This document shows, piece after piece, positions 30,143-50,700 of a stretch of 64,000 nt of DNA. Source of the DNA: a virus (taxonomy: Duplodnaviria; Heunggongvirae; Uroviricota; Caudoviricetes); the IMG/VR virus record IMGVR_UViG_3300029953_000013; one strand, given 5' to 3'. A model generated the notes under the pieces. The model saw nothing but the letters and a program-made list of their open reading frames with translations, searched no databases and had not been told where the DNA came from. How positions within the stretch are numbered: position 1 is the first letter of the stretch; each line of letters opens with the position of its first letter. The translations under genes were made by a program, and so were the position numbers.

Positions 30143-30310
30143 AAAGGAAGCCCCCAGGCGTGAACCTGAGGGCTTGTGGGAGGGCGAGGGCAGAGTTGCA
30201 CTGCCTTGCAGATGGGTTATCACGGTAGATCCTTGCCGCTTCCCCCAACCACTGAGTGTGCCTAGAACACGACTGCTCCCCCTACGGCGGAACCGCTCAC
30301 CCTTTGGTTA

Positions 30311-31159: not shown

Positions 31160-31212
31160 GTGAAACTCCTTGGATATTCGCTGATCGCAGCGAATTGGGT
31201 TGAAAAACACGG

Positions 31213-32728: not shown

Positions 32729-32818
32729 TGGACCAAAGAACTGGATTTGAACCAGCGGCGCGCCTTTCGACATACGGGGGTTGCAATCCCGCCCCTTCGA
32801 CCACTCGGGCATCTTTGG
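32729..32818 (-). tRNA. 90-nt type II-like tRNA with a Ser/Tyr-like D-arm; anticodon ambiguous (GCA or UGC)
   Basis: acceptor CCAAAGA/TCTTTGG, D-arm CCC-GAGTGGTCGAA-GGG, T-arm GCTGG-TTCAAAT-CCAGT, TCCA end, anticodon loop region TTGCAAC, long variable arm. Confidence 0.45.
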
Positions 32819-32824
32819 AATGAA

Positions 32825-32901
32825 TGGAGCCGGTTCTGAGGATCGAACTCAGGACTTTGCCCTTACAAGGGGCGCCCTCTAGCCAACTGAGGTAAACCGG
32901 C
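32825..32901 (-). tRNA. tRNA-Thr (TGT)
   Basis: cloverleaf folded by hand: acceptor GCCGGTT/AACCGGC, anticodon loop CTTGTAA, T-arm CTGAG-TTCGATC-CTCAG, CCA encoded. Confidence 0.8.
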
Positions 32902-32908
32902 GGGGTGT

Positions 32909-33340
32909 TTAGAAGTCTTTCAGGCGACTCAAGCCGTTGCGCTCAAGAAGCCGCTGGATGGTGCCCCAACCCACGTAGGGGAAGCTTTCCTTGATGCCAT
33001 CGATAGACGCCCGGTGTTCCCGGCGCAGTTTCAGGATGGCTTCCTTGGTTTCCTCAGGGATCTCCCCGAACAAGCGCTTGGGAGGAAAGCCGATGCGGTG
33101 TGCGATGTGTCCCACGGTTTCTAAACCGCAACCAACAACATCGCTGATTTCACGATTGGAGAAACCGTTCACCCACATGTTAGCCACGATGTGGCGGCGG
33201 GACCGGTTGTGAGTATTCCCACTCTTGACCACGATGTGCCGAACCTGCTGGCGGGTGCATCCGGTTGCCAGTGCGATGAACGTAGCGTTACGTCCCAGCT
33301 TGGCGAGTGCGATGATCTGATCTTTCGTTTCCTGTTCCAT
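32909..33340 (-). CDS. putative DNA-binding protein with several HTH-like segments (transposase- or sigma-region-4-like)
   Basis: GRNATFIALATGCTRQQVRHI; GFSNREISDVVGCGLETVGHIAHR; RBS GGAGGTTCCAATG. Confidence 0.45.
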   Translation of the reverse strand: MEQETKDQIIALAKLGRNATFIALATGCTRQQVRHIVVKSGNTHNRSRRHIVANMWVNGFSNREISDVVGCGLETVGHIAHRIGFPPKRLFGEIPEETKEAILKLRREHRASIDGIKESFPYVGWGTIQRLLERNGLSRLKDF

Positions 33341-33355
33341 TGGAACCTCCATAAT

Positions 33356-33368
33356 GTTTGTTACCAAC
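33356..33368 (-). promoter_or_regulatory. GTTGGTAACAAAC promoter-like motif
   Basis: 4-16 nt upstream of the candidate starts. Confidence 0.35.
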
Positions 33369-33448
33369 ACTGAATTGCGCAAGATGACGTTAAAGGCTCG
33401 TTAGGGAACTTCCCGTAGGGACTGCCGCTGTTCTCCCTGCGCATGATA

Positions 33449-33532
33449 TGGTTTCCTGGGTGGGAGTCGAACCCACACGCCTTGCGGCGGCGGATTTTGA
33501 GTCCGCTGCGTCTGCCATTCCGCCACCAGGAA
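33449..33532 (-). tRNA. tRNA-Leu (CAA), type II
   Basis: acceptor TTCCTGG/CCAGGAA, anticodon loop CTCAAAA, variable arm CGCCGCAAGGCGT, T-arm GTGGG-TTCGACT-CCCAC, CCA encoded. Confidence 0.8.
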
Positions 33533-33545
33533 ATACTAGCTAGTC

Positions 33546-33695
33546 TTTCTTGTCATCCTTGGCACGAAGCGTGAAGGTTTCACGATCAATGCTGATGATG
33601 TTCTCAACGGGAACCCCGTCAAGCAGTTCGGTGAATTGGGCATCCGCCGTTTCGTCGGGCACTTCGATGATGATGGTGATTGCTTTCATTACTGC
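33546..33695 (-). CDS. 49-aa acidic peptide
   Basis: RBS CCAAGGAGCAGTAATG. Confidence 0.35.
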
Positions 33696-34102
33696 TCCTT
33701 GGTTGATTGAAGATAGTTGAGGTAATTGCTGTCTCTCAGGAATGCCGCCATTTCGGTGTCTTCACCCTTCATGTGGACAGAAAGCCAATCGAGAACGACT
33801 TGAAGAAGATCCACTGTCAGGTTGTCGCTTGTACGCAGAGCAACGAGGCGCTTCATGATTTCAAAGTGAATAGCCCGGTGCCGTTCATAACCGGGATACT
33901 CGGCTTCACGCATGTATTTCTCTTCGGTTTCAAAGTGCTTCTTGCCGAAGTTGATGAATAGGTCCAGGAGAAGGCTTGAAGCGACCTTGTTTTGTAGCTT
34001 TTCGGCTTCAAGAAGATTGTCCAGATGCCCAAGCCACTCCAAATGCTGGTGATCAATGATGCTTATGTGGGTGAACCATTCGGGTTGCCATGTGATGGTC
34101 AT
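33689..34102 (-). CDS. hemerythrin-like metal-binding protein
   Basis: H..HxxxE ... H...E pattern (HFETEEKYM, YERHRAIHFEIMKRL); RBS GAGGAACAAATG. Confidence 0.5.
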   Translation of the reverse strand: MTITWQPEWFTHISIIDHQHLEWLGHLDNLLEAEKLQNKVASSLLLDLFINFGKKHFETEEKYMREAEYPGYERHRAIHFEIMKRLVALRTSDNLTVDLLQVVLDWLSVHMKGEDTEMAAFLRDSNYLNYLQSTKEQ

Positions 34103-34118
34103 TTGTTCCTCTAAGAGA

Positions 34119-34205
34119 TGGTGTGGGTAACAGGACTCGAACCTGCACGGGCTTTCGCCCACAGCGACCTCAACGCTGCGCGTCTACCAATTCCGCCATA
34201 CCCAC
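34119..34205 (-). tRNA. tRNA-Leu (GAG), type II
   Basis: acceptor GTGGGTA/TACCCAC, anticodon loop TTGAGGT, variable arm TGGGCGAAAGCCCGT, CCA encoded. Confidence 0.8.
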
Positions 34206-34366
34206 TATGGTTTAAAGCAAATCCTTCGGTGCTGCCACGAAATTATCGTGGAAGGTTCGATATAAACACGAAATGCAGGGAACTTCATTGGCGGGCTTTC
34301 TTCCGTGCCAACATGACTCCTTTTTGCTGCACTTAGCTTTTGCTTTATCGTCGCTCACGTTCACTC

Positions 34367-34567
34367 CTATTCCGGCACCAATACGGTAAGCACCTTCGGT
34401 TCACCGATGATTCTCAGCGGCGTATTAGAACCCATTCGCCGGTAAGAGCGAACCTCTTCTACAGCTTCCTCTTTTGCCTTTTTGATCACTTCGCCTAGCG
34501 TGTGATTGTTTCCCCAACGCTCAACGTCAACTTCGACCGTCAATTGGACTCGGGCAACTGCATTCAT
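34367..34567 (-). CDS. small hypothetical protein
   Basis: RBS TAGGAGCATCCATG; the longer ORF would overlap tRNA-Pro. Confidence 0.4.
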   Translation of the reverse strand: MNAVARVQLTVEVDVERWGNNHTLGEVIKKAKEEAVEEVRSYRRMGSNTPLRIIGEPKVLTVLVPE

Positions 34568-34584
34568 GGATGCTCCTAGAAAAT

Positions 34585-34661
34585 TGGTCAGCGTGAGAGG
34601 AATTGAACCTCCGACCCTTCCGCCCCAAACGGGATGCGCTACCAGACTGCGCCACACGCTG
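34585..34661 (-). tRNA. tRNA-Pro (TGG)
   Basis: acceptor CAGCGTG/CACGCTG, anticodon loop TTTGGGG, T-arm GGAGG-TTCAATT-CCTCT, CCA encoded; one C.A mismatch in the anticodon stem. Confidence 0.7.
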
Positions 34662-34669
34662 TTATTTGT

Positions 34670-35107
34670 TCATACCACCAGAGAATGTTTGATTTCGCCC
34701 CGGAGATGCATAAGAAGCATTCCAAGCACGTTGGTCCCTACCCCGTCTACCTTGCCCCAGTAACGATCACCCCAATTGTTACCTTCAACCAGATAGGCAT
34801 TCTCGGTTGCTAAGAGCCATGCACGAAGGTCAAGGTTCTGATTAAACTTCGCCACTAGAACTCGGTACATGATGTCATCCTTGATCTGCTCCCAGTCCTC
34901 CCGCAAGCTCACAGACCTACCCATGCGCTTAGACTCGCTTGCATCAAGGTCCACGAAGAGAACGGCATCGTGAGGGTTCTTACATTTTTGGCTCTGGAAA
35001 GCAGCCTCGGCATTCTTGAATGTGTGCCCAAATACTGTGATGGGGCACGAGAAGAAATTACTCAGGAAGCGGTATTTCCCTGTGAATTCAAGGATTTCTG
35101 TGGTCAT
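34670..35107 (-). CDS. NADAR (YbiA-like) domain protein
   Basis: GKYRFLSNFFSCP...NAEAAFQSQK; RBS GGAGGAAACAATG. Confidence 0.6.
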   Translation of the reverse strand: MTTEILEFTGKYRFLSNFFSCPITVFGHTFKNAEAAFQSQKCKNPHDAVLFVDLDASESKRMGRSVSLREDWEQIKDDIMYRVLVAKFNQNLDLRAWLLATENAYLVEGNNWGDRYWGKVDGVGTNVLGMLLMHLRGEIKHSLVV

Positions 35108-35119
35108 TGTTTCCTCCAA

Positions 35120-35194
35120 TGATAGAGGGGGTGGGTTTTGCAGCCCACATCTACGTTCCATTCGGGAACTGCTCTCCTATTGAGCTACCCCTTC
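35120..35194 (-). tRNA. degenerate tRNA-like element (pseudo-tRNA?)
   Basis: GCTC-AATAGGA-GAGC D-arm and GTTCC/GGAAC stem are present, but the T-loop and acceptor pairing are non-canonical. Confidence 0.2.
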
Positions 35195-35199
35195 TTGTG

Positions 35200-36678
35200 C
35201 TACAGGTTCGACAGCAACCGCTCCCGAATCTCACTCAGCTTCTCTTCCCGAAGCAGCTTGCCATCCTGGAACACCGGCTGAAGGAGATCAGCGGCAATGT
35301 AGTCGGTCGAAGTGAAGCCATCAAAGACCTTCAGTTCCGCGCCGATCTTTAGGACCGCTACCCTGCCCTTCTGACTCTTCTTGACGCCGTTGTCAGTCAC
35401 CGGGTTCTTGTAGATGGCGATCTCTTCCCCGTTGATGGTCACAGCCGTGGACTTCAGGGCGAAGCCGAAGGTATCCCTGGTCGTGTACTGGTAGGTGAAG
35501 GAACCGATGCCGTAGACCATGTTGGTGCTGGCGAAGCCCTTATTCATGAGCCGCACGCTGATCTCACCGCACCGGTCATAGGTGATCGCATCGCCGTAGA
35601 TGCAGCCAATGTGCGAGTCCAGCACCTTGAAGCCCTTCTCGTTCACCGTGCCGCCGAAGATGTCCCACAGAAGCTCGATGACGCCCTTCTTGGCGCGGGG
35701 ATCGGTCGCATCGTCATCACCGCAGATGATCTTGACCGGATCGCCGGAATCGGGGCGGATGACGATCTTGCCATCACGAGCAAGAATCTCAGGCTTGAGG
35801 CTGGGAATGATGACGGAGAGGGTATTCCAAAGATCCCAGGTGTCGGAAACGATGGACAGGAAGCCGGAAGGGTAGACTTCGGTAATCAAGCGCCGGTAGG
35901 TTTCGTACTCGTTCTCAGCACCACCAGCACACATGACGGAATGCTCCGTTGCGGGAATGCTGGTGCCCACCATCTCCCTGGTAACGTCCGCGCCATAGTA
36001 GCGCTCCAGGTAGCAGATGCCGGGAATGGTGTCAGTGCCGAAGAAGGACAGAAGGTGCCCTGCATCGCTCTTGGCGGCGGATTCCAGGCTTGTCATGCCG
36101 CGCATACTGAAGTCGTGTCCCTGGAAAGGAACGAACCCAAGATCCCCACCGGTCAGCTTCGCGTAGGCATTCAGCAGCTTACGGTAGTTCCAGGCAGTCG
36201 TTGCGCTGGTGCTGGGAAGCCACAGTTCGCAGGACATGAGGGTTTCCAGGTAGTTGGTCAGCCAGAAGAACCGGGGATCGGTATTCTCGATGGTGAGCAT
36301 GGGCACACGCACCGGCACGATGGTTCCCTCAGGAACGGCTTTGATCAGGATGGGCAGGAACCCAAGCTCCCAAAGATCGGTGATGTGCGAAGTGTCGGGA
36401 TTCGTCACACCCAGCGTGTGAGTAATCACACGGCTATACTCAGCCAGGACTTCCATCAACGGGCGGCTGAAGAAATTCTCATTGAAGTAATCCATCAAGT
36501 ATTCCTTGATGAAGCCCTGGAAGCCAAATGCAACCACGCTCTGGATGTGCCGGATGCGACTGGTGCGTGGGGTCCAGGTGGAGTAGACAACCTCGGTTCC
36601 GACAGGGTATTGCTGCCGATGAGAACATTTATAAAAATCACACAGGAGTGTGGCTGGATAGGTGGTATGATTGACCAT
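35200..36678 (-). CDS. nadV: nicotinamide phosphoribosyltransferase (NadV/NAMPT family)
   Basis: 492 aa, the typical size of phage NadV; call rests on length, gene context and overall family resemblance, no single diagnostic motif verified; RBS GGAGATATTATG. Confidence 0.7.
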   Translation of the reverse strand: MVNHTTYPATLLCDFYKCSHRQQYPVGTEVVYSTWTPRTSRIRHIQSVVAFGFQGFIKEYLMDYFNENFFSRPLMEVLAEYSRVITHTLGVTNPDTSHITDLWELGFLPILIKAVPEGTIVPVRVPMLTIENTDPRFFWLTNYLETLMSCELWLPSTSATTAWNYRKLLNAYAKLTGGDLGFVPFQGHDFSMRGMTSLESAAKSDAGHLLSFFGTDTIPGICYLERYYGADVTREMVGTSIPATEHSVMCAGGAENEYETYRRLITEVYPSGFLSIVSDTWDLWNTLSVIIPSLKPEILARDGKIVIRPDSGDPVKIICGDDDATDPRAKKGVIELLWDIFGGTVNEKGFKVLDSHIGCIYGDAITYDRCGEISVRLMNKGFASTNMVYGIGSFTYQYTTRDTFGFALKSTAVTINGEEIAIYKNPVTDNGVKKSQKGRVAVLKIGAELKVFDGFTSTDYIAADLLQPVFQDGKLLREEKLSEIRERLLSNL

Positions 36679-36702
36679 AATATCTCCAAGGAGAAGGGTT
36701 GA

Positions 36703-37521
36703 ATGAATATCGGTAAGATTGAATACTTACCATCGGTTCCTGGTGTGTATCTAATCCGAAACACACGTAATGGAAAGGTGTATGTCGGTCAGAGCCAGAT
36801 AGGTTTATACCAACGCTGCTATGGACACTTGGCGAAGCTCCAGGGAGGCGGCGACAATCGCCATCTTCAAGCCGATTGGGACAAGTGCGAAGCTGATTTT
36901 GTCTTTGAAGTCCTTGTGACCTGTGAGCCAGAAGAATGTTCTATGTATGAAACTCACTGCATTGCTCAATATCACTCTTACCACCGGAAGTTTGGCTACA
37001 ACATCGACATAAGAACAAGCGGCGCAGGTAGTAAAAGCCAAGAAACTATCGACAAGATTCAGTCAGATGCTTCAAAGGCTGCGCGTAGTAAGGCAATGAC
37101 AGGTCGTGTGCGTATCACGGATGGAGTGGAAAACCGATCCATTACGCCAGGGCAAGCTGTGCCGGACGGCTGGTGGGAAGGGCTTACCATTCGTAACAAG
37201 CGCAAAACCAATCCAGCAAACAAGGGTTTAACTACGGGTTACGACCCTTTGACGGGTGAAACTATGCAGATCGCTATTGATGATCCTCGTTACCTGAATG
37301 GAGAAATCAAGCACATTGCAAATAAGCGGTGGGAAGGTGTTATAACCAAACGGCAAGAAACAGAGAACAATCGCCTTGGACCTAAAATGGAAACATTGAA
37401 GGGATGCGTTTGGATCAACAACGGTGTAGTCAACAAACGCATCCCTTCCGGTCCAATCCCTAATGGATGGAATGCCGGTAGGCTTCCTAGAAAGCCAAAC
37501 CGAAAAAAGGAAGCCGCCTAA
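36703..37521 (+). CDS. GIY-YIG homing endonuclease (free-standing)
   Basis: GVYLIRNTRNGKVYVGQS...YQRCYGHL; RBS AAGGAGAAGGGTTGAATG; sits between nadV and prs on the opposite strand. Confidence 0.7.
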   Translation: MNIGKIEYLPSVPGVYLIRNTRNGKVYVGQSQIGLYQRCYGHLAKLQGGGDNRHLQADWDKCEADFVFEVLVTCEPEECSMYETHCIAQYHSYHRKFGYNIDIRTSGAGSKSQETIDKIQSDASKAARSKAMTGRVRITDGVENRSITPGQAVPDGWWEGLTIRNKRKTNPANKGLTTGYDPLTGETMQIAIDDPRYLNGEIKHIANKRWEGVITKRQETENNRLGPKMETLKGCVWINNGVVNKRIPSGPIPNGWNAGRLPRKPNRKKEAA

Positions 37522-38405
37522 CCTTCCTGAATAAGAGGAAGGATGTGGACCCGGTTGCTAATTTCGGAAGGTAACTTGTCAACATAAGCCTGGGTAAGAA
37601 TGCTGTTGGTTGTGACAAGGTGATCGATCTTGTTGTATCGGAAGTCTTCCGGCACGCTTGCCCAGTTCGGGTTATCCGGCGTCATGGGAACGCCGAAGAG
37701 CTTGCCATCGAAGATCGACCGCTCACAGTGCGACACGACAAGCACGATTTGCTTGGGATCGAACTTCCTAAGCTCTTCCGAAGCCGCCACGAAAGTTCCA
37801 CCGTAGGAACAAAGATCGTCCACGATCACCACGGTTTTCCCGCGAATGCATTCAGCATTGGAGATGTCGTAACCGGTGATCTTCCCGGTTTCAAAGTCCC
37901 GCTTCTTGAACCCGGCGATCTGAGGGTAGGGCTTGTACATCTCCATGCTTCCGTAGCGCTTCTGTGCCCCGGCATCGGGGAACATGACCACTACCTCTTC
38001 GCCCTCTTCCAGCCCACCAAAGGGCGCTTCGTTGAAGCTGCGGAATGGGTAGTAGGAGCTTGCGTTCTCGCCCAGGTAGGCAAGGGTCAACTCGCTGTGA
38101 GGATCACACACGTAGATGTGCTCAAAGCCCAAGTCCTTGATGAACTCAGCCACGAAACGGAGGGAGCATTGGGAGCCGCCCCTGGAATCCCTGTCCATGC
38201 GCCCGTAGGGCATGTAGAGGATGCGAAGGCTCACATGCTTGTTATGAAGGTGCCGCTTCACCATCATCAGGTGGAAAAGATCCTCATCGCTTTCCCACTT
38301 CAGCACCAACCCATCGGGGTAGAACGGAACGTGGCTCATGTTCAATTCCCCGTTGGGGAACATCGTGCGCGGGATGGGATTGCCGGTTGCATCATAGAGC
38401 ATCAT
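37518..38405 (-). CDS. prs: ribose-phosphate pyrophosphokinase (PRPP synthetase)
   Basis: PYGRMDRD (RQDR-like) and VVIVDDLCSYGGTF PRPP-binding loop. Confidence 0.65.
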   Translation of the reverse strand: MMLYDATGNPIPRTMFPNGELNMSHVPFYPDGLVLKWESDEDLFHLMMVKRHLHNKHVSLRILYMPYGRMDRDSRGGSQCSLRFVAEFIKDLGFEHIYVCDPHSELTLAYLGENASSYYPFRSFNEAPFGGLEEGEEVVVMFPDAGAQKRYGSMEMYKPYPQIAGFKKRDFETGKITGYDISNAECIRGKTVVIVDDLCSYGGTFVAASEELRKFDPKQIVLVVSHCERSIFDGKLFGVPMTPDNPNWASVPEDFRYNKIDHLVTTNSILTQAYVDKLPSEISNRVHILPLIQEG

Positions 38406-38425
38406 TGACTCCTTGTTGTTTAATA

Positions 38426-38438
38426 GGTTGTTACCACC
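38426..38438 (-). promoter_or_regulatory. GGTGGTAACAACC promoter-like motif
   Basis: about 23 nt upstream of the prs ATG. Confidence 0.4.
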
Positions 38439-38440
38439 AG

Positions 38441-38710
38441 CTAGACGATGACGGTCTGCCCACGAACCCCGTCAATAATGGCTGTCACCGATGAAGTGCG
38501 AATGGGTGCATCCGGGAAGTCCGCGAAGAAGATCCAGCACCGCTCATCAACCTTCGGTCCAATGATGTCAGTGTAGGGAATCCACACACCATCCTTGGTG
38601 AAGGGAAAGAGCGGGAAATTGGCACCGCTGATCCGACGAACAAGCTTGGCTTCCGGGTCCACTTCAAAGATGCTGTTGCGGGTTGAAAACTGTTTCGTGG
38701 GCTGTGTCAT
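38441..38710 (-). CDS. hypothetical protein
   Basis: 89 aa. Confidence 0.45.
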   Translation of the reverse strand: MTQPTKQFSTRNSIFEVDPEAKLVRRISGANFPLFPFTKDGVWIPYTDIIGPKVDERCWIFFADFPDAPIRTSSVTAIIDGVRGQTVIV

Positions 38711-38913
38711 TTAGAAATCCCCCAGGTGCCGCGCAGAGCGGTCAGGTTGCTATCCCAAAAGTGCAGCATCAGACGGGACAGCCCACCATGGGAAATGTCC
38801 ATGAGCGAAGCCAGTTCGGCATGGGAGAAACCGGCACGGATACCGTACTCCAGTTCTGCCCTGCGCCCGAAGTGCTGGGAAAGCGTGTTCTTCTGTTTGT
38901 AGATTTTAGCCAT
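38707..38913 (-). CDS. hypothetical protein (possible HTH)
   Basis: 68 aa. Confidence 0.4.
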   Translation of the reverse strand: MAKIYKQKNTLSQHFGRRAELEYGIRAGFSHAELASLMDISHGGLSRLMLHFWDSNLTALRGTWGISK

Positions 38914-38915
38914 GG

Positions 38916-39329
38916 CTAATCCTCGAAAATGTTGTGGATGTTGTGTTGCTTGAGCCGTTTCAGGACCAATTCCCGATTGGCTTTTTCATAGGCAGCGCGA
39001 ACGGTATCAAGGTAGAGATGCTTGAATGACTGGCGAACGTCCTTATCCGCAAGGTTGGCTTCACGCTTCTCAAGCTGATCCCACTCCCTGGTGTTCCGCT
39101 CTGGTAACGGTCCAGGAGAGTTAATGGTCATGAATTTGTGATAGGCAGCGACATAGACCAAGTTCCACTTCTTGGACCCATATAACTCCCTTGAAACCCA
39201 CTCGTAATCAAGGTATTGGCATAGGTCATACATCTGCTCCATCATGAGCAGGATTTGTGTCTCAGAAATGCCCTTAGGAGAAGCGCTTTCGTCTCCCCCG
39301 TTCTTTCTGCTGAATACTGATGGCTGCAT
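38916..39329 (-). CDS. hypothetical protein
   Basis: 137 aa. Confidence 0.45.
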   Translation of the reverse strand: MQPSVFSRKNGGDESASPKGISETQILLMMEQMYDLCQYLDYEWVSRELYGSKKWNLVYVAAYHKFMTINSPGPLPERNTREWDQLEKREANLADKDVRQSFKHLYLDTVRAAYEKANRELVLKRLKQHNIHNIFED

Positions 39330-39344
39330 GGTTGCTCCAAAGAA

Positions 39345-39419
39345 TGGCTGGGGAGGTAGGATTCGGACCCACGAATGACGGGATCAAAACCCGTTGCCTT
39401 ACCACTTGGCTACTCCCCA
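39345..39419 (-). tRNA. tRNA-Gln (TTG)
   Basis: U1-A72 acceptor TGGGGAG/CTCCCCA, anticodon loop TTTTGAT, T-arm GTGGG-TCCGAAT-CCTAC, CCA encoded. Confidence 0.75.
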
Positions 39420-39796
39420 CTGTATGGATCGATCTTGATCTCAAGATCGGGTAGCTCTTGTATATCTATACCAACCAAGGCTTTTGTAATTACTTCTTCA
39501 AGCATCTTCCCTCGCGCCTTTGCATAAAGATCCTGATGCATGTTGACCAAGGCGTTGAATACGTGCTTGTTTGAATAGTCTGGCTTGTCGTATATGTGCT
39601 TTGGATACGACGAATTGAAATCGTGAATGACCGTGACTAAATGGTAATTCCTGGTTTCAAAATCAAGTTCCAGGTGCCTTCGGTCGTATCCTTTGATCTT
39701 TGTTTCATACTTCAGGGTGCCGGTGTTGTATAAAAGATAATCCAGGATCTTGTCAATTTGTCCGGTCAGAAGCAGCACTTCCACATCATTAGCCAT
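39410..39796 (-). CDS. hypothetical protein; last 3 codons overlap the tRNA-Gln 5' end
   Basis: 128 aa ORF ending DPYSGE-TAG inside the tRNA acceptor stem. Confidence 0.4.
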   Translation of the reverse strand: MANDVEVLLLTGQIDKILDYLLYNTGTLKYETKIKGYDRRHLELDFETRNYHLVTVIHDFNSSYPKHIYDKPDYSNKHVFNALVNMHQDLYAKARGKMLEEVITKALVGIDIQELPDLEIKIDPYSGE

Positions 39797-39807
39797 TGGC
39801 TACCTCA

Positions 39808-39841
39808 ATAAAAAAGCCGGGGCACCACCACGGACCCCGGC
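39808..39841 (-). terminator. rho-independent terminator
   Basis: GCCGGGGtccgtggtggtgCCCCGGC followed by TTTTTTATT on the minus strand. Confidence 0.55.
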
Positions 39842-39858
39842 TCCCCCAACATCACGCG

Positions 39859-40059
39859 CTAAGAACACAGCGCAGCAATGCACCCCACCACTACAAAGAA
39901 GACCGCGAAACAAGCCCATGCCGCGAAGCCGAACCAGAGAGGGCACGTAACCCACCACCAGGACCAAGCAATAACATTGGTCAACTTGAGGACCAGAAAA
40001 ATCAGGAAGAGAATCGTCATGACACTCATACCGCCGTTTGCTCCTTGTTGATGGTTCAT
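39859..40059 (-). CDS. small membrane protein
   Basis: RBS GGAGGGTGGTATG; two TM helices. Confidence 0.45.
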   Translation of the reverse strand: MNHQQGANGGMSVMTILFLIFLVLKLTNVIAWSWWWVTCPLWFGFAAWACFAVFFVVVGCIAALCS

Positions 40060-40079
40060 ACCACCCTCCATGCATGATA

Positions 40080-40680
40080 GAACCCGCCCTGCCGTGCGCT
40101 TTGCTACGCTGGTGGCACCCAATCTAAAGGTTGAGGCGGGAGCCTTAAACCCTGTTCTGCGCTGACATGCCTTTGCTTAATTCCGGTGGCACCAGACCCA
40201 CACGCTTTTGCAGGGATATTTGCTTCAGCATTCCACTGAAGCTGCCGGGTTTGTCAACTGCGCTCCGTTGATCGAGCTATTAAGGGGATTGCCCCACCCT
40301 TGCGGGAATTTAGGTAGCCACCGGACGATACACCACAAGTCTTAACCAGACCGGGATACGGGCTTGTGGTGCCAGATGCAGGCTTTGAACGGGTCGCTCC
40401 GTACGTTGTCAAGCCGATTGACTCTCAGCGCTGGCTACTACGGCTTGACCAAGCGCCTCTGTTTATCTGCATAACCAAAGATAAAGCAACCTACCAAAGT
40501 AAGTAAGGCACAGAATGTTTACAATCTCCCGCCCCGAAAGGTGGATGTTGAACCGTGCGGTCCCTGGTTCTGAGGGCGTTTCTGTGACCATCACAGGTTG
40601 GACATGCTGATGCACCACAACCTCTTTGGTAGTCTTGTGCGTGATGATTCTTCGCTTGCTTTGATTGCGCGGCATGTGCG
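40080..40680. other. ~600-nt structured non-coding spacer (candidate ncRNA)
   Basis: no ORF; multiple long-range complementary segments (CCGGTGGC/GCCACCGG, CCACAAG/CTTGTGG); lies between a terminator and the next gene. Confidence 0.25.
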
Positions 40681-40688
40681 CCCCCTCG

Positions 40689-40949
40689 TTAATGAACGGT
40701 AACGATTGATTCCTCAGTTGAAACCTGGACTCCTGGCGGAAGAGTTACCAATGTTTCGCTGAAGTAGTTCCAGAACTGGGTAGTGCCATCTGGCATGATC
40801 CAAGGCTTTGTGCAGCAGCCCCAGGAGTCAATCGAATGCATCTGCCCGTTAGAAGTCGTAAACGCTGTAATTATGCAGCGAGATTCTTTCCTTCCGGGAC
40901 TGCACCCCAACGTCAGGGCAAGGATGATGGCGAGTAGAACTTGTTTCAT
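40689..40949 (-). CDS. small lipoprotein
   Basis: LAIILALTLGCSPG lipobox; GAGG RBS. Confidence 0.5.
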   Translation of the reverse strand: MKQVLLAIILALTLGCSPGRKESRCIITAFTTSNGQMHSIDSWGCCTKPWIMPDGTTQFWNYFSETLVTLPPGVQVSTEESIVTVH

Positions 40950-41180
40950 TGAAACCTCGAAAAATGATCGGCGGGGCGTGATGGCTTTTCACCACCGACA
41001 TACAGGATTCCCGTCAGAATTACCTGATGCTCCTATTTTCGCTTTGCTTGAGCCGTTTTAGCGCTACCGACTCTCCCTCTACGTTTTTCTGAGCTAACGC
41101 CCCATGGATTTGGTAAACCCACAGTCTCCAGGTCAGGTAATCACTCCTTCTGGCAATACTGTGGGGTATTTGGTGGAGCT

Positions 41181-41256
41181 AACAGGGATCGAACCTGCGA
41201 CCTAGTGCTTGCAAAGCACCCGCTCTCCCATCTGAGCTATAGCCCCTGATATTGCC
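41181..41256 (-). tRNA. tRNA-Ala (TGC)
   Basis: acceptor GGGGCTA/TAGCTCC, anticodon loop TTTGCAA, T-arm GCAGG-TTCGATC-CCTGT, CCA encoded. Confidence 0.8.
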
Positions 41257-41372
41257 GCTTAGTCGAATCGCGGTTCACCCCTAATGGACCGGTATCTGTT
41301 TGCTCCTTGCGGAGTTTCTGTGCCGTGGGGTTTGCAGGTCCGGTTATCCTGCCCTCTTCTACTTCATACCAC

Positions 41373-41642
41373 CTAGATTTCCGGGATCGGAAACTCAAAG
41401 AACTCCAGGCAGTCAACGAAGAAGCCGTAGAAGTCGTTCACGAGAGAATGGGGAATGTCCTTCCCGAATTCCTTCTCATCGAACAGCCGAACCATTGCCA
41501 GCTTCAGCCCTTCCCTTTCGCTGAAGGTGTCTTCAGACGAGCACAGGGACCAACCCAGCCTCAGTGCCCCGTCCTCGTGCCTGAATGCCACCAGGACGCC
41601 CTTGCGCTTGCCGTTGCGACCGTTCACATACCGCTTGATCAT
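41373..41642 (-). CDS. hypothetical protein
   Basis: 89 aa. Confidence 0.4.
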   Translation of the reverse strand: MIKRYVNGRNGKRKGVLVAFRHEDGALRLGWSLCSSEDTFSEREGLKLAMVRLFDEKEFGKDIPHSLVNDFYGFFVDCLEFFEFPIPEI

Positions 41643-41814
41643 GACTTCTCCTATGGAAATTTTCTGCTGTGATTATTCACATGATAGGTGTCTACACTCC
41701 GTTGGATTCCCAACGTCCTCCGACCGCAGTAGAGAGGAACTTCCAGCTTCTCAGGCTGGCGTGCGTTAAACCCCGGCAAGGGTTGGGTCATGACTACGGG
41801 ATTGCCGCCCCGAT

Positions 41815-41905
41815 TGGCGATGGGTGAGGGGATCGAACCCCCGGAACCTTTCGGTTCACTTGTTTTCAGGACAAGCGCAATCGACCGCTCTGCCAACCCA
41901 CCATC
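41815..41905 (-). tRNA. tRNA-Ser (TGA)-like, 91 nt, type II with an irregular acceptor/D junction
   Basis: anticodon arm CTTGT-CCTGAAA-ACAAG, variable hairpin GAACCgaaaGGTTC, T-arm GGGGG-TTCGATC-CCCTC, GCCA end; the 5' acceptor has two mismatches and extra nt. Confidence 0.5.
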
Positions 41906-42507
41906 TACTCTTTTACTGTATTACCACCCCCGCGCCAGTCTCCGAATAACCCTAGCTCTCTGGCTTCCCTCATTCCTTTGGCTACAACTAACCACGCTAA
42001 GTAAGGCATGTTCTTTCTTGTCAGATTGCATCTGATACACGCTGGAACAACATTGCTAGTTATATGAGGAAGGCTATTATCCACTCGATCAAGCGTTAGT
42101 TTGCCTGAAGTTTCCCCACAGTAACAACACCCCTTACCAAGTAACTCCATGATCCAGTCAGTGGTTAAATCATTGGTCCAACCGCGCTTTGCATCCCCAC
42201 CATTGGAATCTTGTTTGATAACCAGGGCAATATCATAGGGGTTTTTGGAACTTCGCAGTTGCTTGGCGTATTCTGACCCTTTAACTCTTCGGGCTTGTAG
42301 CTTCTTCGGATCGGTTTCTTTCCTTCTTGGGTAAGTTGCCTTCCTGATAGAATCACAAATGACACAGGTTTTACGGAAAAAGACTAAACCCTTTGACTTT
42401 CTATACGATGGTATCACTTCTGGGAACGCCTTAGCACATGTGTCACACACAAAGCCTTCCTTCGTTCTTTTTGTGGACATGCGCATATACCAACTCAGCG
42501 TGTCCAT
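41905..42507 (-). CDS. HNH homing endonuclease (HNH_3-like)
   Basis: LDRVDNSLPHITSNVVPACIRCNLTRKN plus N-terminal zinc-ribbon cysteines. Confidence 0.55.
   Translation of the reverse strand: MDTLSWYMRMSTKRTKEGFVCDTCAKAFPEVIPSYRKSKGLVFFRKTCVICDSIRKATYPRRKETDPKKLQARRVKGSEYAKQLRSSKNPYDIALVIKQDSNGGDAKRGWTNDLTTDWIMELLGKGCCYCGETSGKLTLDRVDNSLPHITSNVVPACIRCNLTRKNMPYLAWLVVAKGMREARELGLFGDWRGGGNTVKE
41930..41938 (-). promoter_or_regulatory. GGTGGTAAT promoter-like motif about 25 nt upstream of the tRNA-Ser-like 5' end
   Basis: the motif sits before an RNA gene, which argues for a transcriptional role. Confidence 0.4.
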
Positions 42508-42978
42508 AGAACATTGTTAGCCCCCCTATAGGGTTGGTATGATATTGCCCTGCGTTCCGCGAGAACCAGGGCTGGTGTCAGCTTTAACCTAATGACACGT
42601 TGAACTATCCCGACAATGCTACAGTTACGATGTGGGACGGTAAGGGAGGGTCTTATGTGCTGTATCACACAGGCTTCCTCTAGCCTTCGCTGCCGCGATT
42701 TGGAGCAGGGAAGTGTGGTGTTTGATGCCCTAGTCCGCAACAAACCTTCATCCACACCTTAATCCCTGCATGATAGTTCTACGTTTGTGCATACACGCCA
42801 CGTAGAAAGGTGTCGGGTGCGGTCTAAGCGCATTCAGACCTGTATCCAGAGCAGCGCTACCCCAGGTCATGTACCCTACTTCACGCTTTAATTGGACCAT
42901 CATGGGGCACGCTACATCGGCTATCCCTGTGGAGCTTGGACGCTCAATCCACACCGTCACGTTTAATGATGATCCTTA

Positions 42979-43047
42979 GGCGCATCTTGCCGGATTTGAA
43001 CCGACCATGACTATTGCGCGACAGCCATGACAACCAACATAAGATGC
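42979..43047 (-). tRNA. short degenerate tRNA-like element
   Basis: acceptor GCATCTT/AAGATGC and T-arm GTCGG-TTCAAAT-CCGGC are good, but the D and anticodon region is too short and non-canonical. Confidence 0.2.
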
Positions 43048-43212
43048 ATTCATGCGTTGATTCTGATGATGGACGCATCCCCATCAAGAGGTTTCTTTGT
43101 CTATGGAGCAACCTACTCAACAACCGCCAGCTTTTAACAATTAAGAGGGCGCTGGTCCCTACCCTTTTCTCGGTTTTTGCAAGGTTCCGAAAAAGGATGA
43201 ACAACTAACCTT

Positions 43213-43292
43213 TGGCGAGTCTGGCTGGATTTGAACCAGCGGCATCTTCCTTAACAGGGAAGCGCTCTAGGACCGGACTGAGCTACAGACCC
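43213..43292 (-). tRNA. tRNA-Asn (GTT)
   Basis: acceptor GGGTCTG/CAGACTC, anticodon loop CTGTTAA, T-arm GCTGG-TTCAAAT-CCAGC, CCA encoded; 12-nt D-loop. Confidence 0.7.
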
Positions 43293-43297
43293 AAGGG

Positions 43298-43379
43298 AGA
43301 CAGGGGACGGATTTGAACCGCCGTATTACCGGATGCGCTATCCGGTGGCTTTGAATTGACCAGACTTAGCTACCCTGCC
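43298..43379 (-). tRNA. atypical tRNA-like element (expanded D region; anticodon arm CCGGA-TAGCGCA-TCCGG)
   Basis: acceptor GGCAGGG/CCCTGTC and T-arm GGCGG-TTCAAAT-CCGTC; position 33 is not U. Confidence 0.25.
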
Positions 43380-43551
43380 GTGGTGATGGCTTGAGGAACC
43401 ATCGTGAGATTGATTTTGACTGTTGTTTTCAGGAACAGCCCCAGGTTGTCGCCCAGGTTGACCAATACATCCAGCACTTATTTCAGTTCGGTATGCTACA
43501 CGAACCCAGGTTTCACACGCTGTGCGCAGAACGCTTGGAAACGTCTTGATT

Positions 43552-43870
43552 TGGTGGATCTGGCGAGAGTCGAACTCGCGTCCAAGAAGGTGAACCCACA
43601 AGAGTTTTATCAGCATCTTAGCCTCTGAATCGGGAGGCACCGCATGTCAAGGTGCTTGGTTTTCCTAGTTTACTCGCCAGCTAGGAGGCGCATCATTTAG
43701 GCAGCTACAGCAAAAGCTCCTGCGCGGCGGTAACGACGGAAAGCAACAACATTGGACTTCTTGTTGGTGTTGGCAGTTTTGTTTTAGTTGATTTGATGAC
43801 CCAGCCCTTCAACTACCTGGGGATGCCTCTTTGCGAATCAGCACGAACCTGTCGAAACCTTTACAGACCC
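43552..43870 (-). ncRNA. ssrA: tmRNA (ssrA)
   Basis: 5' GGGTCTGTAAAGGTTTCGAC... pairs with the 3' ...GGACGCGAGTTCGACTCTCGCCAGATCCACCA (close to the E. coli tmRNA 3' end); internal tag ORF ends ...GCT GTA GCT GCC TAA (AVAA-stop); candidate resume codon GCC after an in-frame UAA. Confidence 0.7.
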
Positions 43871-44200
43871 ATGATAGGTAGGGTAGTTTAACGTCTTGCC
43901 CCAGGACGTAGGGGTGCCGGTTAAAGCGCCCTCCACCACTCCACAATTATCAGCATGGAGACTGTTTCTTGCGCCCTCTCTTTGATTCCTACCACCGATG
44001 GTTGCTAGTCTCAGCTACTAGCGCGTCACCATTCCTAATGAAGCCGGTGATTCTTGCCCTCCCGTAACTTTAATGGCGCGGGACGTAACCGCCCTTTCGG
44101 GCTACCATGCTCTTTGGCTCTCAGTGCCCTTTAACGGAATTGAACCGCCTCTCGTCTTTACCAAAACTCAGCAACCGAACAGGAATTGAACCTGTATTTT

Positions 44201-44276
44201 TGGTAGGGGAAACCGGGATCGAACCGATGACCTTCACCGTGTAAAGGTGTTGCTCTACCAACTGAGCTATTCCCCT
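44201..44276 (-). tRNA. tRNA-Val (TAC)
   Basis: acceptor AGGGGAA/TTCCCCT, anticodon loop TTTACAC, T-arm ATCGG-TTCGATC-CCGGT, CCA encoded. Confidence 0.75.
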
Positions 44277-44759
44277 GATGACAGGAAGTGTCTGCTCCGA
44301 TTCGCCCCATGAGTGCTTGCTTGATAAGCAGAACCCGCACTCCAGCTTTTTGCGTAGACCGGCATCTTCCTGGCGTTGCAATCGTTCAGTTGCGCGTGTA
44401 CGCTCTCGGGACTGTTCGCTCCGACCCCGTTGCTGTCGTGTGACAGCTTCACGCCGGGGAATTCACCCTGAGTTTCAATCCAAGTCTTCGGGTTCCATCC
44501 TTGGAAGGGTGCGATTGAATGGGAAGACCCATAACCGCTGACAGGCTAGGGACGGACTTGATCCCCGAATACCCTTTGTTACCGTTTACCGTATCCGGGA
44601 CGGTGCTGGACGGGCTGCTTCCAGCTTTAGAGTCCATACCGGGGGAGGCTTTCGCCCACGAGTCCGGTATCCCCTGTCTTGGGCGGGTAAGCTTCCCAAC
44701 TTACCTCGCATCGAGGTTTTACCCTGGATAGGTGCTTTTTACCACCTTCGCGCCCGGTC
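44277..44759. other. ~480-nt structured non-coding spacer (candidate ncRNA)
   Basis: no credible ORF; GC-rich with many complementary segments; a GGTGGTAAAAAG motif at its 5' end on the minus strand. Confidence 0.2.
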
Positions 44760-45074
44760 TTAGTCTTTGGGGATTGCAAGCCGCTGAAGACCTTCCTGTG
44801 ACATCCAGGACGGTAGGTAGGTTTCTACCACCAGCGCTTCACACTCATCAAAGAGATCACTGTAAATCTTCTTCAGGAACCTTGCCAGCCGATCATCCTT
44901 CCAGCTTGGCGTAGCGTGCCCACCACTACTCAGGTTGATCCACCACTTGTTTTCCACCAAGCTATAACAAAGCTGCCCATTCGCTACCAACAGATGCAGA
45001 TTCGGTTTGCCTATGAAGTTCATGAGCTTGGGAATCTCAAGCAGATAAAGCAAAGCAGCTTCGTATTGCATCAT
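44760..45074 (-). CDS. hypothetical protein
   Basis: 104 aa; weak RBS. Confidence 0.35.
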   Translation of the reverse strand: MMQYEAALLYLLEIPKLMNFIGKPNLHLLVANGQLCYSLVENKWWINLSSGGHATPSWKDDRLARFLKKIYSDLFDECEALVVETYLPSWMSQEGLQRLAIPKD

Positions 45075-45258
45075 TGGCTCAAAGAAAAACCAATGTGGTT
45101 AGATTGAAATAGGATGATCAAGCCCCGTCCTCGCCATCACCCAGGGGTCACAAATTATGAGCATAGACCCCGCCCCGCCGATCACTTGTGAAACGTCACA
45201 CTAAGCCAGAGGACCATGTAGTCCCAACACGCCTTGTAGTAACCTAAGCTGAATTCCA

Positions 45259-45507
45259 TCACATCTCACGAGGATGGTAGATAGTGACGCGACCCTGCTT
45301 GATCAGACCAGTCCCAATATGAGTCGGGATGTCGATCTTGAAGCCCTGCTGATGATTGAGGCTCAAGGCACGCCGCACGTATTTCATTGCGTAGGTGTCT
45401 GCCTCATCCGCATTCGGGGCGGCGATATAGAGATCAACATTGACTTTTACCTTGAAGCGCTTGCATTCGTGATGCACTGCTACTTCCGTGGTTGTTGATG
45501 GAATCAT
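45259..45507 (-). CDS. hypothetical protein
   Basis: 82 aa; AAAGGG RBS. Confidence 0.4.
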   Translation of the reverse strand: MIPSTTTEVAVHHECKRFKVKVNVDLYIAAPNADEADTYAMKYVRRALSLNHQQGFKIDIPTHIGTGLIKQGRVTIYHPREM

Positions 45508-45687
45508 TTGAAACCCTTTCTAAACGGCTACCGACAAAATGGAAGGTATGATAGTGGACTTCCCGCACGTATTTTAGGGAAATGTGCTTGCTGCATTCTA
45601 CGACAGAGCCATCACTAGGAGGTTGTAGCAGCATCGCACGATTCTTGCACTCTGGCGCTTCCCTTATGCCAGTCCATCAGAGCACCA

Positions 45688-45717
45688 AAGCGGGAGGGGT
45701 TCGGAAGCCGCTTTTTA
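45688..45717. terminator. bidirectional terminator-like hairpin
   Basis: AAGCGGgaggggttcggaagCCGCTTTTT. Confidence 0.4.
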
Positions 45718-45723
45718 AGTTAT

Positions 45724-46224
45724 TCATGATTCAGTGGGGATGTTTTGCAAATCCCATTCTGCATGAACTTCACGATGACAGTTAGCACAAAGGAGATCAC
45801 ATTTTTCTAACTCTATTGCGATCTTGAACCAAGCTCTACCGAAGGCAGAGGAAATCGCAAATTCTTTTTCACTCGGAATTCGATGGTGAAACTCCAACGC
45901 CGATATGCACTTCTTGTAGCCGCATATCATACATTTACCACCCTTGTGCTGAATGCACTTTGCTTTGAGCCGGAACCTTTTTGTAGTAAGGCTGCAATTA
46001 GCACAGTATTTGCGAAGTCTTTCAAACGGCGACATTACCTTTCCGCAACGTTCGCAATTAGTCCATTCATGTTTCCGATAATCTTGTTTTGAAAAGTTCA
46101 CCGTGTTATGTGTGCCAAACGGAGTGCAAGCTAAACAGTATTTTCGCTTTTGTAGATTCCGCTTTTTACCGCCGATTACGACTGAACCGCTGAACTCTTT
46201 ACCACACTTTCCACAGGTTTTCAT
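45724..46224 (-). CDS. HNH homing endonuclease with N-terminal zinc ribbons
   Basis: CANCHREVH plus multiple CxxC. Confidence 0.6.
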   Translation of the reverse strand: MKTCGKCGKEFSGSVVIGGKKRNLQKRKYCLACTPFGTHNTVNFSKQDYRKHEWTNCERCGKVMSPFERLRKYCANCSLTTKRFRLKAKCIQHKGGKCMICGYKKCISALEFHHRIPSEKEFAISSAFGRAWFKIAIELEKCDLLCANCHREVHAEWDLQNIPTES

Positions 46225-46263
46225 TACCGCACTGGAAGCATTACCACAAGGCAGTAATTTATT

Positions 46264-46367
46264 AGGCAGGGGTAGGACTCGAACCTACGACCCTTTACGG
46301 CATAATTGGTGCGTAGCACGGAATCAGCCTACTGCAAGTAATGCTCTACCAACTGAGCTACCCTGCC
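46264..46367 (-). tRNA. atypical 104-nt tRNA-like gene (possible insertion or intron in the anticodon region)
   Basis: canonical acceptor GGCAGGG/CCCTGCC, D-arm GCTC-AGTTGGTA-GAGC and T-arm GTAGG-TTCGAGT-CCTAC, but 53 nt between the D and T arms; no CCA. Confidence 0.35.
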
Positions 46368-46384
46368 TTTCCCTTTTCAAGGAA

Positions 46385-46654
46385 CTACTTGCACACCAGA
46401 GCGGCGAGGTTTGCCGCAACCTGCACTGCCTTTTCGGCGTGCGCCAGGGAAGCGTCCTTGGCTTTGATCTTGGTGGCGATCTCTTCTTCATGCGCCTTGA
46501 TCTTGGCAGCGATTTCTTCTTCGCTGGTCTGAATCTTCGCCTTCTCCTTGGCGGCAATAGCCTCCAGCCGGTCGATGGCGTCATGGAACTCGATGAGGAT
46601 GTTCTTTACCGAATCCCGGTAGAACAATTTCTTGAAAAGCTTGACCAGAAACAT
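46385..46654 (-). CDS. small coiled-coil protein
   Basis: RBS TGGAGGCAACATG; Lys/Glu/Ala-rich heptads. Confidence 0.45.
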   Translation of the reverse strand: MFLVKLFKKLFYRDSVKNILIEFHDAIDRLEAIAAKEKAKIQTSEEEIAAKIKAHEEEIATKIKAKDASLAHAEKAVQVAANLAALVCK

Positions 46655-46695
46655 GTTGCCTCCATTGTGGGTTGTTTGTTGCGATTGAAAAAGGT

Positions 46696-46771
46696 TGGTT
46701 ACGGAAACTGGATTTGAACCAATATTCGCTGCGTCAGAGGCAGGTGTCCTACCGGGTTGGACGATTCCGCA
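46696..46771 (-). tRNA. tRNA-Gln (CTG)
   Basis: U1-A72 acceptor TGCGGAA/TTCCGTA, anticodon loop CTCTGAC, T-arm ATTGG-TTCAAAT-CCAGT, CCA encoded; one C.C mismatch at the top of the anticodon stem. Confidence 0.65.
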
Positions 46772-50502: not shown

Positions 50503-50700
50503 CTATTCTGGCGGCTTTGCTACCCAGTGTGGGCAGATTCGGCAAGCATCAGTGCATGTAAATAAAAAATATCCTGGGTTGATCAGCTTTGGATTGGTGC
50601 AGCGAAGCTTATGAGTTTGAGCTTGGAGGATGTGTGCCCAATGAACGCAAGTAGTCAGATACTTGCATCCATACACATCCTCCAAAGTTTTTACTTTCAT
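50503..50700 (-). CDS. small Cys/His-rich protein
   Basis: ATGA coupling to the upstream stop. Confidence 0.4.
   Translation of the reverse strand: MKVKTLEDVYGCKYLTTCVHWAHILQAQTHKLRCTNPKLINPGYFLFTCTDACRICPHWVAKPPE

Follow-up and report, generated by a model that had tools for sequence, protein, structure and literature searches.

A one-piece tmRNA gene inside the tRNA island of an uncultivated phage

Genes for transfer-messenger RNA (tmRNA, ssrA) have been recorded in 402 of 18,146 phage genomes (2.3%), with 133 distinct tmRNA structures among them (PMC9004378). Carriers include Bacillus phage G and the Bxz1-like mycobacteriophages, with Bxz1, Cali, Catera, Rizal, ScottMcG, Spud, LordLeafolot and Momo of subcluster C1 (PMC4131195, PMC4472892, PMC13014143), as well as huge metagenomic phages that carry tmRNA with or without SmpB and for which a role in ribosome rescue has been proposed (Al-Shayeb et al., 2020, PMC7162821). 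The gene is also found in 17 of the 47 contigs of the Melnitz group; two roles have been suggested for it there, either upkeep of the translation machinery that the phage has hijacked or the tagging of host proteins (Buchholz et al., 2022, PMC9004378). We found no experimental demonstration of phage tmRNA function in the literature searched. Here we describe a tmRNA gene carried by a 64,000-nt stretch of viral DNA (Caudoviricetes; IMG/VR record IMGVR_UViG_3300029953_000013), the whole of which is called the window below. Positions 43552-43870 of the window are confirmed as a phage-encoded, standard one-piece tmRNA gene that lies inside a tRNA island.

Identity and anatomy of the tmRNA gene

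On the minus strand, ARAGORN places a tmRNA whose limits are exactly 43552 and 43870 and whose tag reads ANTNKKSNVVAFRRYRRAGAFAVAA before a stop. RF00023, the Rfam covariance model for tmRNA, gives a match with identical positions and strand at 84.5 bits (E = 2.4e-31 in the 64-kb window). As the gathering score of this model is 47 bits, the match is far beyond chance; it spans model positions 1-374 of 374 and is not truncated. The minus strand of the gene reads 5' GGGTCTGTAAAGGTTTCGAC ... GGACGCGAGTTCGACTCTCGCCAGATCCACCA 3'. Of the independent assemblies, which agree with the window at 99.98% identity or more, L007 and L009 extend into this region, and both carry an identical tmRNA; the gene is therefore neither a chimera nor an assembly artefact. 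We also considered a two-piece (permuted) tmRNA, which is ruled out by the direct pairing of the 5' and 3' ends and by the clan comparison, where RF00023 is the best match and RF04321 (tmRNA_permuted) stays at 20.3 bits against a threshold of 47. Nor is this an ssrA reduced to the tRNA-like domain (TLD), of the type found in mycobacteriophage DS6A, given that pseudoknot 1 (PK1), the resume codon and a frame of 25 codons are all present.

These results bear out the first-pass annotation, which had proposed a tmRNA within a tRNA island from the letters alone; the RF00023 match and the ARAGORN call are the check that it had itself named, and the former is structure-aware. Several details that it had given proved accurate, namely the two ends of the reverse complement, the acceptor formed by GGGTCTG and CAGATCC (seven standard pairs including G3-U), the end of the tag open reading frame (ORF), GCT GTA GCT GCC TAA, and the UAA that precedes the GCC resume codon in frame; this UAA lies at RNA 85-87, 12 nt ahead of the codon, within the upstream sequence UAAAACAAAACU. 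Its comparisons with bacteria went too far. The 3' end, which had been called nearly identical to that of E. coli, is only similar, since BLAST matches of 32-38 nt at 89-91% identity occur in 8 of 5,426 E. coli genomes. These eight chromosomal sites are unannotated (e.g., NZ_CP126345.1 1164751-1164788) and are probably duplicates of the ssrA 3' end left at prophage or island junctions. The AVAA ending of the tag, taken as an alpha-proteobacterial sign, is not specific, being shared by two of the 100 bacterial tags sampled below, one of them from a Ruminococcus metagenome-assembled genome (MAG). An alpha-proteobacterial affinity is likewise not supported, as the gene is one-piece and alpha-proteobacterial tmRNAs are two-piece (PMC9004378).

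The anatomy of the RNA is given in Table 1, together with the island and the nearest tRNA genes; all the anatomy pairs listed were checked and are standard.

Table 1. Features of the tmRNA and its surroundings; the window coordinate equals 43871 minus the RNA position (MFE, minimum free energy)
Feature	RNA positions	Window coordinates	Strand	Basis
One-piece tmRNA (ssrA) gene, complete, 319 nt		43552..43870	-	ARAGORN, RF00023, same sequence in L007 and L009
Acceptor stem 5' strand GGGUCUG	1-7	43864..43870	-	7 standard pairs with RNA 309-315
D-loop analogue UAAAGGUUUCGA, with conserved GGUUUCGAC motif	8-19	43852..43863	-	Rfam alignment
Helix 2 5' strand, sub-helices H2a-H2d	20-49	43822..43851	-	Pairs with RNA 254-288
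PK1, stem 1 = 50-54/67-71, stem 2 = 56-62/80-86	50-86	43785..43821	-	Rfam model, stem search
A-rich single-stranded spacer AAACAAAACU, 10 nt, PK1 to resume codon	87-96	43775..43784	-	Sequence
Tag frame: GCC resume codon, 25 codons (ANTNKKSNVVAFRRYRRAGAFAVAA), UAA stop	97-174	43697..43774	-	ARAGORN, direct translation
Helix 5, around last tag codons and stop	146-183	43688..43725	-	MFE hairpin of 46-nt sub-sequence; 11 standard pairs
Reduced 3' domain where PK2-PK4 normally sit, 70 nt	184-253	43618..43687	-	Stem search, pair check
Helix 2 3' strand	254-288	43583..43617	-	Pair check
T-arm: 5-bp stem GCGAG/CUCGC (292-296/304-308), 7-nt loop UUCGACU	292-308	43563..43579	-	Rfam 5/5, pair check
Acceptor stem 3' strand CAGAUCC, discriminator A316 and genomically encoded CCA	309-319	43552..43562	-	Sequence, pair check
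tRNA island holding the tmRNA		32729..46771	-	11 ARAGORN tRNAs and 2 extra Rfam tRNA matches; small ORFs and auxiliary genes interleaved
tRNA-Val, immediate neighbour		44201-44276	-	
tRNA-like gene, immediate neighbour		43298-43379	-	
tRNA-Asn, neighbour		43213-43292	-	

The acceptor pairs run G-C, G-C, G-U, U-A, C-G, U-A and G-C, followed by ACCA, and the third of them (G3-U70) is the alanine identity element. In the D-loop analogue, the motif GGUUUCGAC at RNA 12-20 conforms to the defining pattern GGNUUCGAC and aligns with high posterior probability to the Rfam consensus GGaUUCGAC; the model alignment places G18-A290 and A19-G289 at the base of helix 2. The D-loop analogue region is the part of a tmRNA that binds SmpB. 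The T-arm has the 5-bp stem and the 7-nt UUCNANU loop of the family. Helix 2 comprises 22 standard pairs in five segments (H2a outer, 20-23/285-288; H2a inner, 27-29/279-281; H2b, 34-38/272-276; H2c, 40-44/267-271; H2d, 45-49/254-258), and between these lie one 3x3 internal loop, one short asymmetric loop and two bulges, of one base and of 8 nt; in the Rfam alignment 6 of the 30 modelled helix-2 pairs are non-standard.

In PK1, stem 2 matches the Rfam model at 7 of 7 pairs, and stem 1 (CCCAG/CUGGG), which comes from the stem search, has only standard pairs, giving an H-type topology at the canonical position directly upstream of the resume codon, drawn from a single sequence without covariation support. 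A compensatory change in register with the Rfam consensus was considered for stem 1; the claim was dropped, as the loop alignment is ambiguous (posterior probabilities 4-5). The spacer that follows PK1 aligns with high posterior probability to the Rfam consensus AAAAAAUAAuU, and the GCC codon at RNA 97 aligns with the consensus GCa. The mRNA-like domain thus has an alanine resume codon, a short frame that stops within helix 5 (UAA at RNA 172-174) and a hydrophobic AVAA C-terminus. The Rfam helix-5 columns match RNA 146-183 poorly. Within the 3' domain only short hairpins (185-208, 216-234 and 235-248) or alternative small pseudoknots can be drawn, and the Rfam alignment has large deletions in its PK2 and PK4 columns and non-standard pairs in the region. 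From one tmRNA to another the PK2-PK4 region is variable, and membership of the family does not depend on it. Except for PK2-PK4, which can be drawn here in more than one way, the RNA has all the testable defining features of the one-piece tmRNA family.

For comparison, 100 bacterial tmRNAs were extracted from a genome collection through their common T-arm motif, using a looser pattern that gave 120 loci from many phyla; the sample is biased but phylogenetically wide. Their lengths range from 342 to 417 nt (median 370), so that the phage RNA is shorter than all of them. The median bacterial tag is 10 aa long, eight of the 100 have at least 20 aa and net charges lie between -3 and +4, while the phage tag has 25 aa and a charge of +6. 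The latter nevertheless starts with AN and ends in the hydrophobic A-V-A-A tail, as cellular degradation tags do, and long basic tags exist in bacteria too, among them GNTNGNVVSLSAYRASRANQTQRLAA from an Omnitrophota and ANKKNLFAVPSLKATPARVAVAA from a Blackallbacteria MAG. The Omnitrophota MAG offers the best tag resemblance, which is too weak to be used for host assignment. The bacterial tmRNAs are identical to the phage RNA at about 65-73% of its positions, and outside the universally conserved ends no significant match to its core was found among the 100 (best E = 0.007 over 19 nt); such a core argues against a fresh, not-yet-decayed capture. A search of 185,579 species genomes for the exact 32-nt 3' end gave no match, and this search and the comparison with the 100 tmRNAs together identified no bacterial donor or host. 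Only the shortened architecture and the strongly basic tag stand out. The gene adds to an already documented class, the phage tmRNAs, and is less novel than first rated.

The phage, its tRNA island and its relatives

The window is phage DNA, as judged from a large terminase gene (55625-57193), a portal-capsid module, a class II ribonucleotide reductase (RNR) and a T4 Rnl1-type RNA ligase. The terminase gene is followed by a 558-aa gene in portal position, a 427-aa gene and a 370-aa gene in capsid position. The same phage (at least 99.98% identity) was assembled independently from several JGI, ENA and SRA samples, and the longest contig with its genes has 99,931 bp. Its samples belong to the JGI 33000298xx-299xx series and to ENA ERZ2724xxxx-ERZ2725xxxx, and include SRR8475547 and SRR9021112. 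It is directly established what the gene is, that its determinants are intact, that it lies in a phage and that no SmpB gene is present in the window. As regards the last of these, SmpB (PF01668) is absent from all 148 window ORFs of at least 95 aa in Pfam scans (two batches of 15 families each, with complete lists), and phmmer gave no match in the window with an E. coli SmpB sequence as query. The same scans revealed no integrase or recombinase family among the window ORFs of at least 95 aa.

All 13 tRNA genes of the island (32.7-46.8 kb) are on the minus strand, co-oriented with the tmRNA. CCA is genomically encoded in 11 of the 11 tRNAs called by ARAGORN, as it is in the tmRNA. Our scan around the gene revealed no sigma-70-type promoter or intrinsic terminator above chance flanking the tmRNA, and the gene callers placed no coding sequence between about 42.45 and 44.76 kb. 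This makes co-transcription with the tRNAs and tRNA-type processing the simplest inference. No riboswitch match was found in the island.

The two tRNA genes missed by ARAGORN and matched by the Rfam tRNA model, at 46264-46367 (-) with 51.8 bits and at 43298-43379 (-) with 36.5 bits, have the acceptor 5' strand GGCAGGG in common and no encoded CCA; both are over-long (104 and 82 nt, respectively), which may reflect an intron or an insertion, either at the anticodon or in the variable region. Direct-repeat families with T-arm-like repeats of the GGTTCAAATCC type flank the tmRNA at 42981-43048 (-) and 44134-44193 (-). Their tRNA-model score is non-significant (16.8 bits, E ~4), and they may be degenerate tRNA remnants.

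Other genes of the window were noted along the way. The gene for the T4 Rnl1-type RNA ligase (28375-29508) has one for a calcineurin-like phosphoesterase (26957-27592) in its vicinity, both on the minus strand; the pair also occurs in the relative L014 (see below), and an ORF for an AAA_33-type kinase is found within the first 32 kb; the three look like an RNA or tRNA repair module. Among the tRNAs are genes related to nicotinamide adenine dinucleotide (NAD), encoding a NADAR protein (34670-35161), NAMPT (35200-36678) and a phosphoribosyltransferase-domain protein (37518-38405), interrupted by a GIY-YIG endonuclease ORF (36703-37521, plus strand); the cluster may be a counter-defence set for NAD regeneration with an inserted homing endonuclease. 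The RNR is flanked, outside the head module, by a NYN-domain putative RNase (50697-51200) and by a protease of the ClpP family whose N-terminal region is NfeD-like (53604-54326), both on the minus strand. An SPFH/Band 7 (stomatin/prohibitin-like) protein (30311-31210, minus strand; E 2.8e-31) adjoins an HNH endonuclease ORF (29536-30201), and a DUF2201 metallopeptidase/VWA-like protein (1381-2913) is paired with an ATPase (2929-4086, minus strand), with longer spurious ORFs on the opposite strand.

Deposited phages gave no BLAST match to the tmRNA gene (blastn in distant mode, 50,697 records), megablast of 16 kb against them returned nothing relevant, and patterns of the exact 5' and 3' ends and the terminase found nothing in IMG/VR. 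A neighbouring 675-aa protein was tried as a synteny anchor and dropped, being modular and tail-fibre-like with many partial matches. Three syntenic relatives, L013, L014 and L015, have terminases of 56-63% and RNRs of 67-68% identity to those of the window phage. The ClpP-like and NYN genes are present and arranged alike in two of the three (L013 and L014), and L014 has five tRNAs in the region near the RNR. L140-L142 have the RNR in common and are not syntenic. In L015 and another related phage, matches to AcrVA2-like and Acb2/Tad1-hairpin (anti-defence) families, and also to QueC, were observed beside the RNR.

Pattern scans revealed two further tmRNAs in tRNA arrays of elements whose proteins are unrelated to those of the window. 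The tmRNA of L137 (SDBV01005317.1; GC 38%) has 284 nt, scores 96 bits and is co-oriented inside an array of 27 tRNAs; that of L139 (IMGVR_UViG_3300033120_000337, a 72-kb IMG/VR contig; GC 52%) has 409 nt, scores 133 bits and is co-oriented among 25 tRNAs. Both resemble the window tmRNA in this setting and in the 5' motif GGGUCUGU...GGUUUCGACAGG, and the L137 RNA also in being shortened and in its 3' acceptor strand CAGAUCC. Their common end motifs are, however, no independent evidence of kinship, since they were built into the search patterns, and the cores cannot be aligned to the window tmRNA (L137 is identical at 196 of 319 positions, mostly in the TLD). Note also that the ARAGORN tag of the L137 gene (5812-6095, plus strand), ANKNFSLLNL (198-230), conflicts with the resume position implied by Rfam, where the aligned codon is GUA and not GCN. 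L139 encodes at 4230-4306 (+) a tRNA whose UUA anticodon would decode the stop codon UAA, which may mean that this phage uses stop-codon suppression or recoding. A viral tRNA-Ala(CGC) in L136 (IMGVR_UViG_3300036766_001793; 1163-1237, minus strand), an element unrelated to the window by protein, agrees fully with the window tmRNA in its acceptor stem and in its T-arm; it has an odd D-arm and scores 37 bits. The neighbouring tRNA-Ser(UGA) call is above threshold on the tRNA-Sec model (50 bits vs 47).

Proposed function and competing explanations

In the reading that we prefer, to which we give a probability of roughly 0.6, the gene would encode a functional phage tmRNA that acts with host alanyl-tRNA synthetase (AlaRS), SmpB and EF-Tu to rescue stalled ribosomes during infection; we infer that it is expressed, charged with alanine, partnered by the host's SmpB and of benefit to the phage. 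The tmRNA would probably be transcribed with the surrounding tRNA genes and trimmed by host tRNA-processing enzymes, CCA addition being unnecessary because CCA is encoded. Host AlaRS would charge the RNA through the G3-U pair and the A discriminator. SmpB and EF-Tu, both from the host, would help it into ribosomes that have stalled on an mRNA that is broken or lacks a stop codon. Translation would then switch to the tmRNA frame at GCC, append ANTNKKSNVVAFRRYRRAGAFAVAA and end at UAA, with release of the ribosome. The phage may gain by keeping ribosomes available while host or phage nucleases, or host defences that cut mRNA or tRNA, generate many stalled complexes. In favour of such a role, the elements needed for trans-translation are all present together, with standard pairs and the stop within helix 5, the tag has the two ends of a cellular degradation tag, and tmRNAs also sit in other viral tRNA arrays (L137 and L139). 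The RNA ligase/phosphoesterase pair and the large tRNA set would fit a phage that invests in the protection of translation.

Several observations weigh against a functional rescue RNA. The PK2-PK4 region has only about 70 nt and aligns poorly to RF00023, and the tag is atypically long and basic, its charge exceeding the bacterial maximum. The MFE fold of the whole RNA is no better than that of shuffled sequence (z = +0.31), folds of sub-domains are likewise indistinguishable from shuffles, and the canonical nested structure, at -65.7 kcal/mol, is weaker than the MFE structure at -90.7. Because pseudoknots are not modelled in thermodynamic folding, we set it aside as evidence either way, and the absence of an MFE signal is not surprising for a pseudoknotted RNA that works bound to protein. 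The predicted structure rests on the alignment to the family model and on manual pairing of one sequence, without covariation among close homologs, none of which was found. As the window encodes no SmpB, function would depend on compatibility with the host. Finally, no tmRNA lies within 10 kb of the RNR in L013, L014 and L015, which suggests that the tmRNA is dispensable for this phage family.

The same absence from the corresponding region of the three syntenic relatives is what one would expect of a decaying passenger, that is, of an ssrA captured from a host or another phage that is no longer under selection and is eroding. Erosion would explain the short pseudoknot domain and the odd tag, and it agrees with the reduction of PK2-PK4, the low internal accuracy of the Rfam alignment (0.65) and the missing thermodynamic signal. 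An eroding gene would not, however, be expected to retain at once an intact G3-U pair, CCA, T-loop, PK1, resume codon and 25-codon frame ending in AA-stop, and a core that has diverged from the sampled bacterial tmRNAs while its critical elements were kept is the pattern expected under selection. Moreover, PK2-PK4 are the very parts that can be replaced in E. coli without loss of tagging, which also counts against decay. We therefore regard a decaying passenger as unlikely. A further possibility, that the gene is the attP-side copy of a host ssrA 3' part, as in temperate elements that integrate into ssrA, draws on the fact that ssrA is a common integration site with fragments left in prophages (PMC9004378) and on the short 3'-end matches at unannotated sites of the eight E. 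coli genomes. Such an attachment-site remnant is so improbable that we exclude it, because the match covers the full model, so that PK1, the tag frame and the whole 5' half are included, and because the window ORFs of at least 95 aa contain no integrase or recombinase family; the co-oriented position inside a tRNA array also speaks against it.

The two features that set this RNA apart could instead point to competition with the host. The phage RNA would then outcompete host tmRNA for SmpB and stalled ribosomes and give proteins a different, long and basic tag, which could let them escape recognition by host adaptors, route them to a phage protease or serve the recycling of host proteins; in the extreme case the RNA could act by titrating SmpB. 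The length and charge of the tag, outside the range of the 100 bacterial tags, and the shortening of the RNA are in line with such retargeting, as is the ClpP-family protease encoded by the phage at 53604-54326. Precedents have been proposed in the TLD-only ssrA of mycobacteriophage DS6A, as a tmRNA inhibitor through SmpB titration (PMC4131195), and in the selective tagging of host proteins by phage Melnitz (PMC9004378). The tag nevertheless keeps the AN start and AVAA end of ordinary degradation tags, long basic tags are known from the two bacterial MAGs mentioned above, and the ClpP-like gene is kept in relatives that have no tmRNA near the RNR and is thus not co-inherited with it, so that retargeting, too, seems rather doubtful. 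Less likely again is a takeover device proper, in which the RNA would displace host tmRNA from SmpB and its +6 tag would redirect polypeptides away from host adaptors and proteases or towards the phage ClpP-family protease, or, as a related idea, in which shortened tmRNAs would travel between unrelated phages in tRNA arrays as a virus-adapted lineage. Ribosome rescue with host factors is the reading that we retain.

Comparison with known phage and bacterial tmRNAs

The gene founds no new category, phage tmRNAs having been known for years from about 2% of sequenced phages. What it contributes to the list of phage translation factors is a well-supported tmRNA, from a lineage without cultured or deposited relative. 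In keeping the TLD, helix 2, PK1 and the tag frame while shedding most of PK2-PK4, the virus offers a natural minimisation experiment for trans-translation, and, should either the phage or its host be brought into culture, the basic tag provides a concrete peptide target for mass spectrometry.

Like the C1 mycobacteriophages and phage G, which have about 30 tRNA genes, the window phage combines a complete one-piece ssrA with many tRNA genes in a large lytic phage, and in their case, too, there is no dedicated study of function. It differs from them in being unrelated and uncultivated, without nucleotide similarity, and in having a shorter RNA (319 nt) with an unrelated tag. The huge phages are likewise uncultivated, with a tmRNA beside tRNAs and other translation-related genes, and the same rescue rationale has been proposed for them; differently from these, the 64-kb window holds no SmpB gene and the longest contig has about 100 kb, which is not in the >200-kb class. 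With the OM43 phage Melnitz and the pelagimyophages the window phage has in common a complete viral ssrA in a lytic phage, and the gene is sporadic in its phage family, as it is in the Melnitz group. The Melnitz gene is, however, circularly permuted (two-piece) and accompanied by a glutamine riboswitch, whereas the window gene is one-piece and its island has no riboswitch match.

Compared with the bacterial one-piece tmRNA (RF00023; E. coli SsrA), the window RNA has the same TLD, helix 2, PK1, alanine resume codon, tag frame and stop within helix 5. It is viral and sits inside a tRNA array, is about 50 nt shorter than the bacterial median with PK2-PK4 cut to about 70 nt, and encodes a tag of 25 aa and charge +6 where bacterial tags are typically of 10 aa and roughly neutral.

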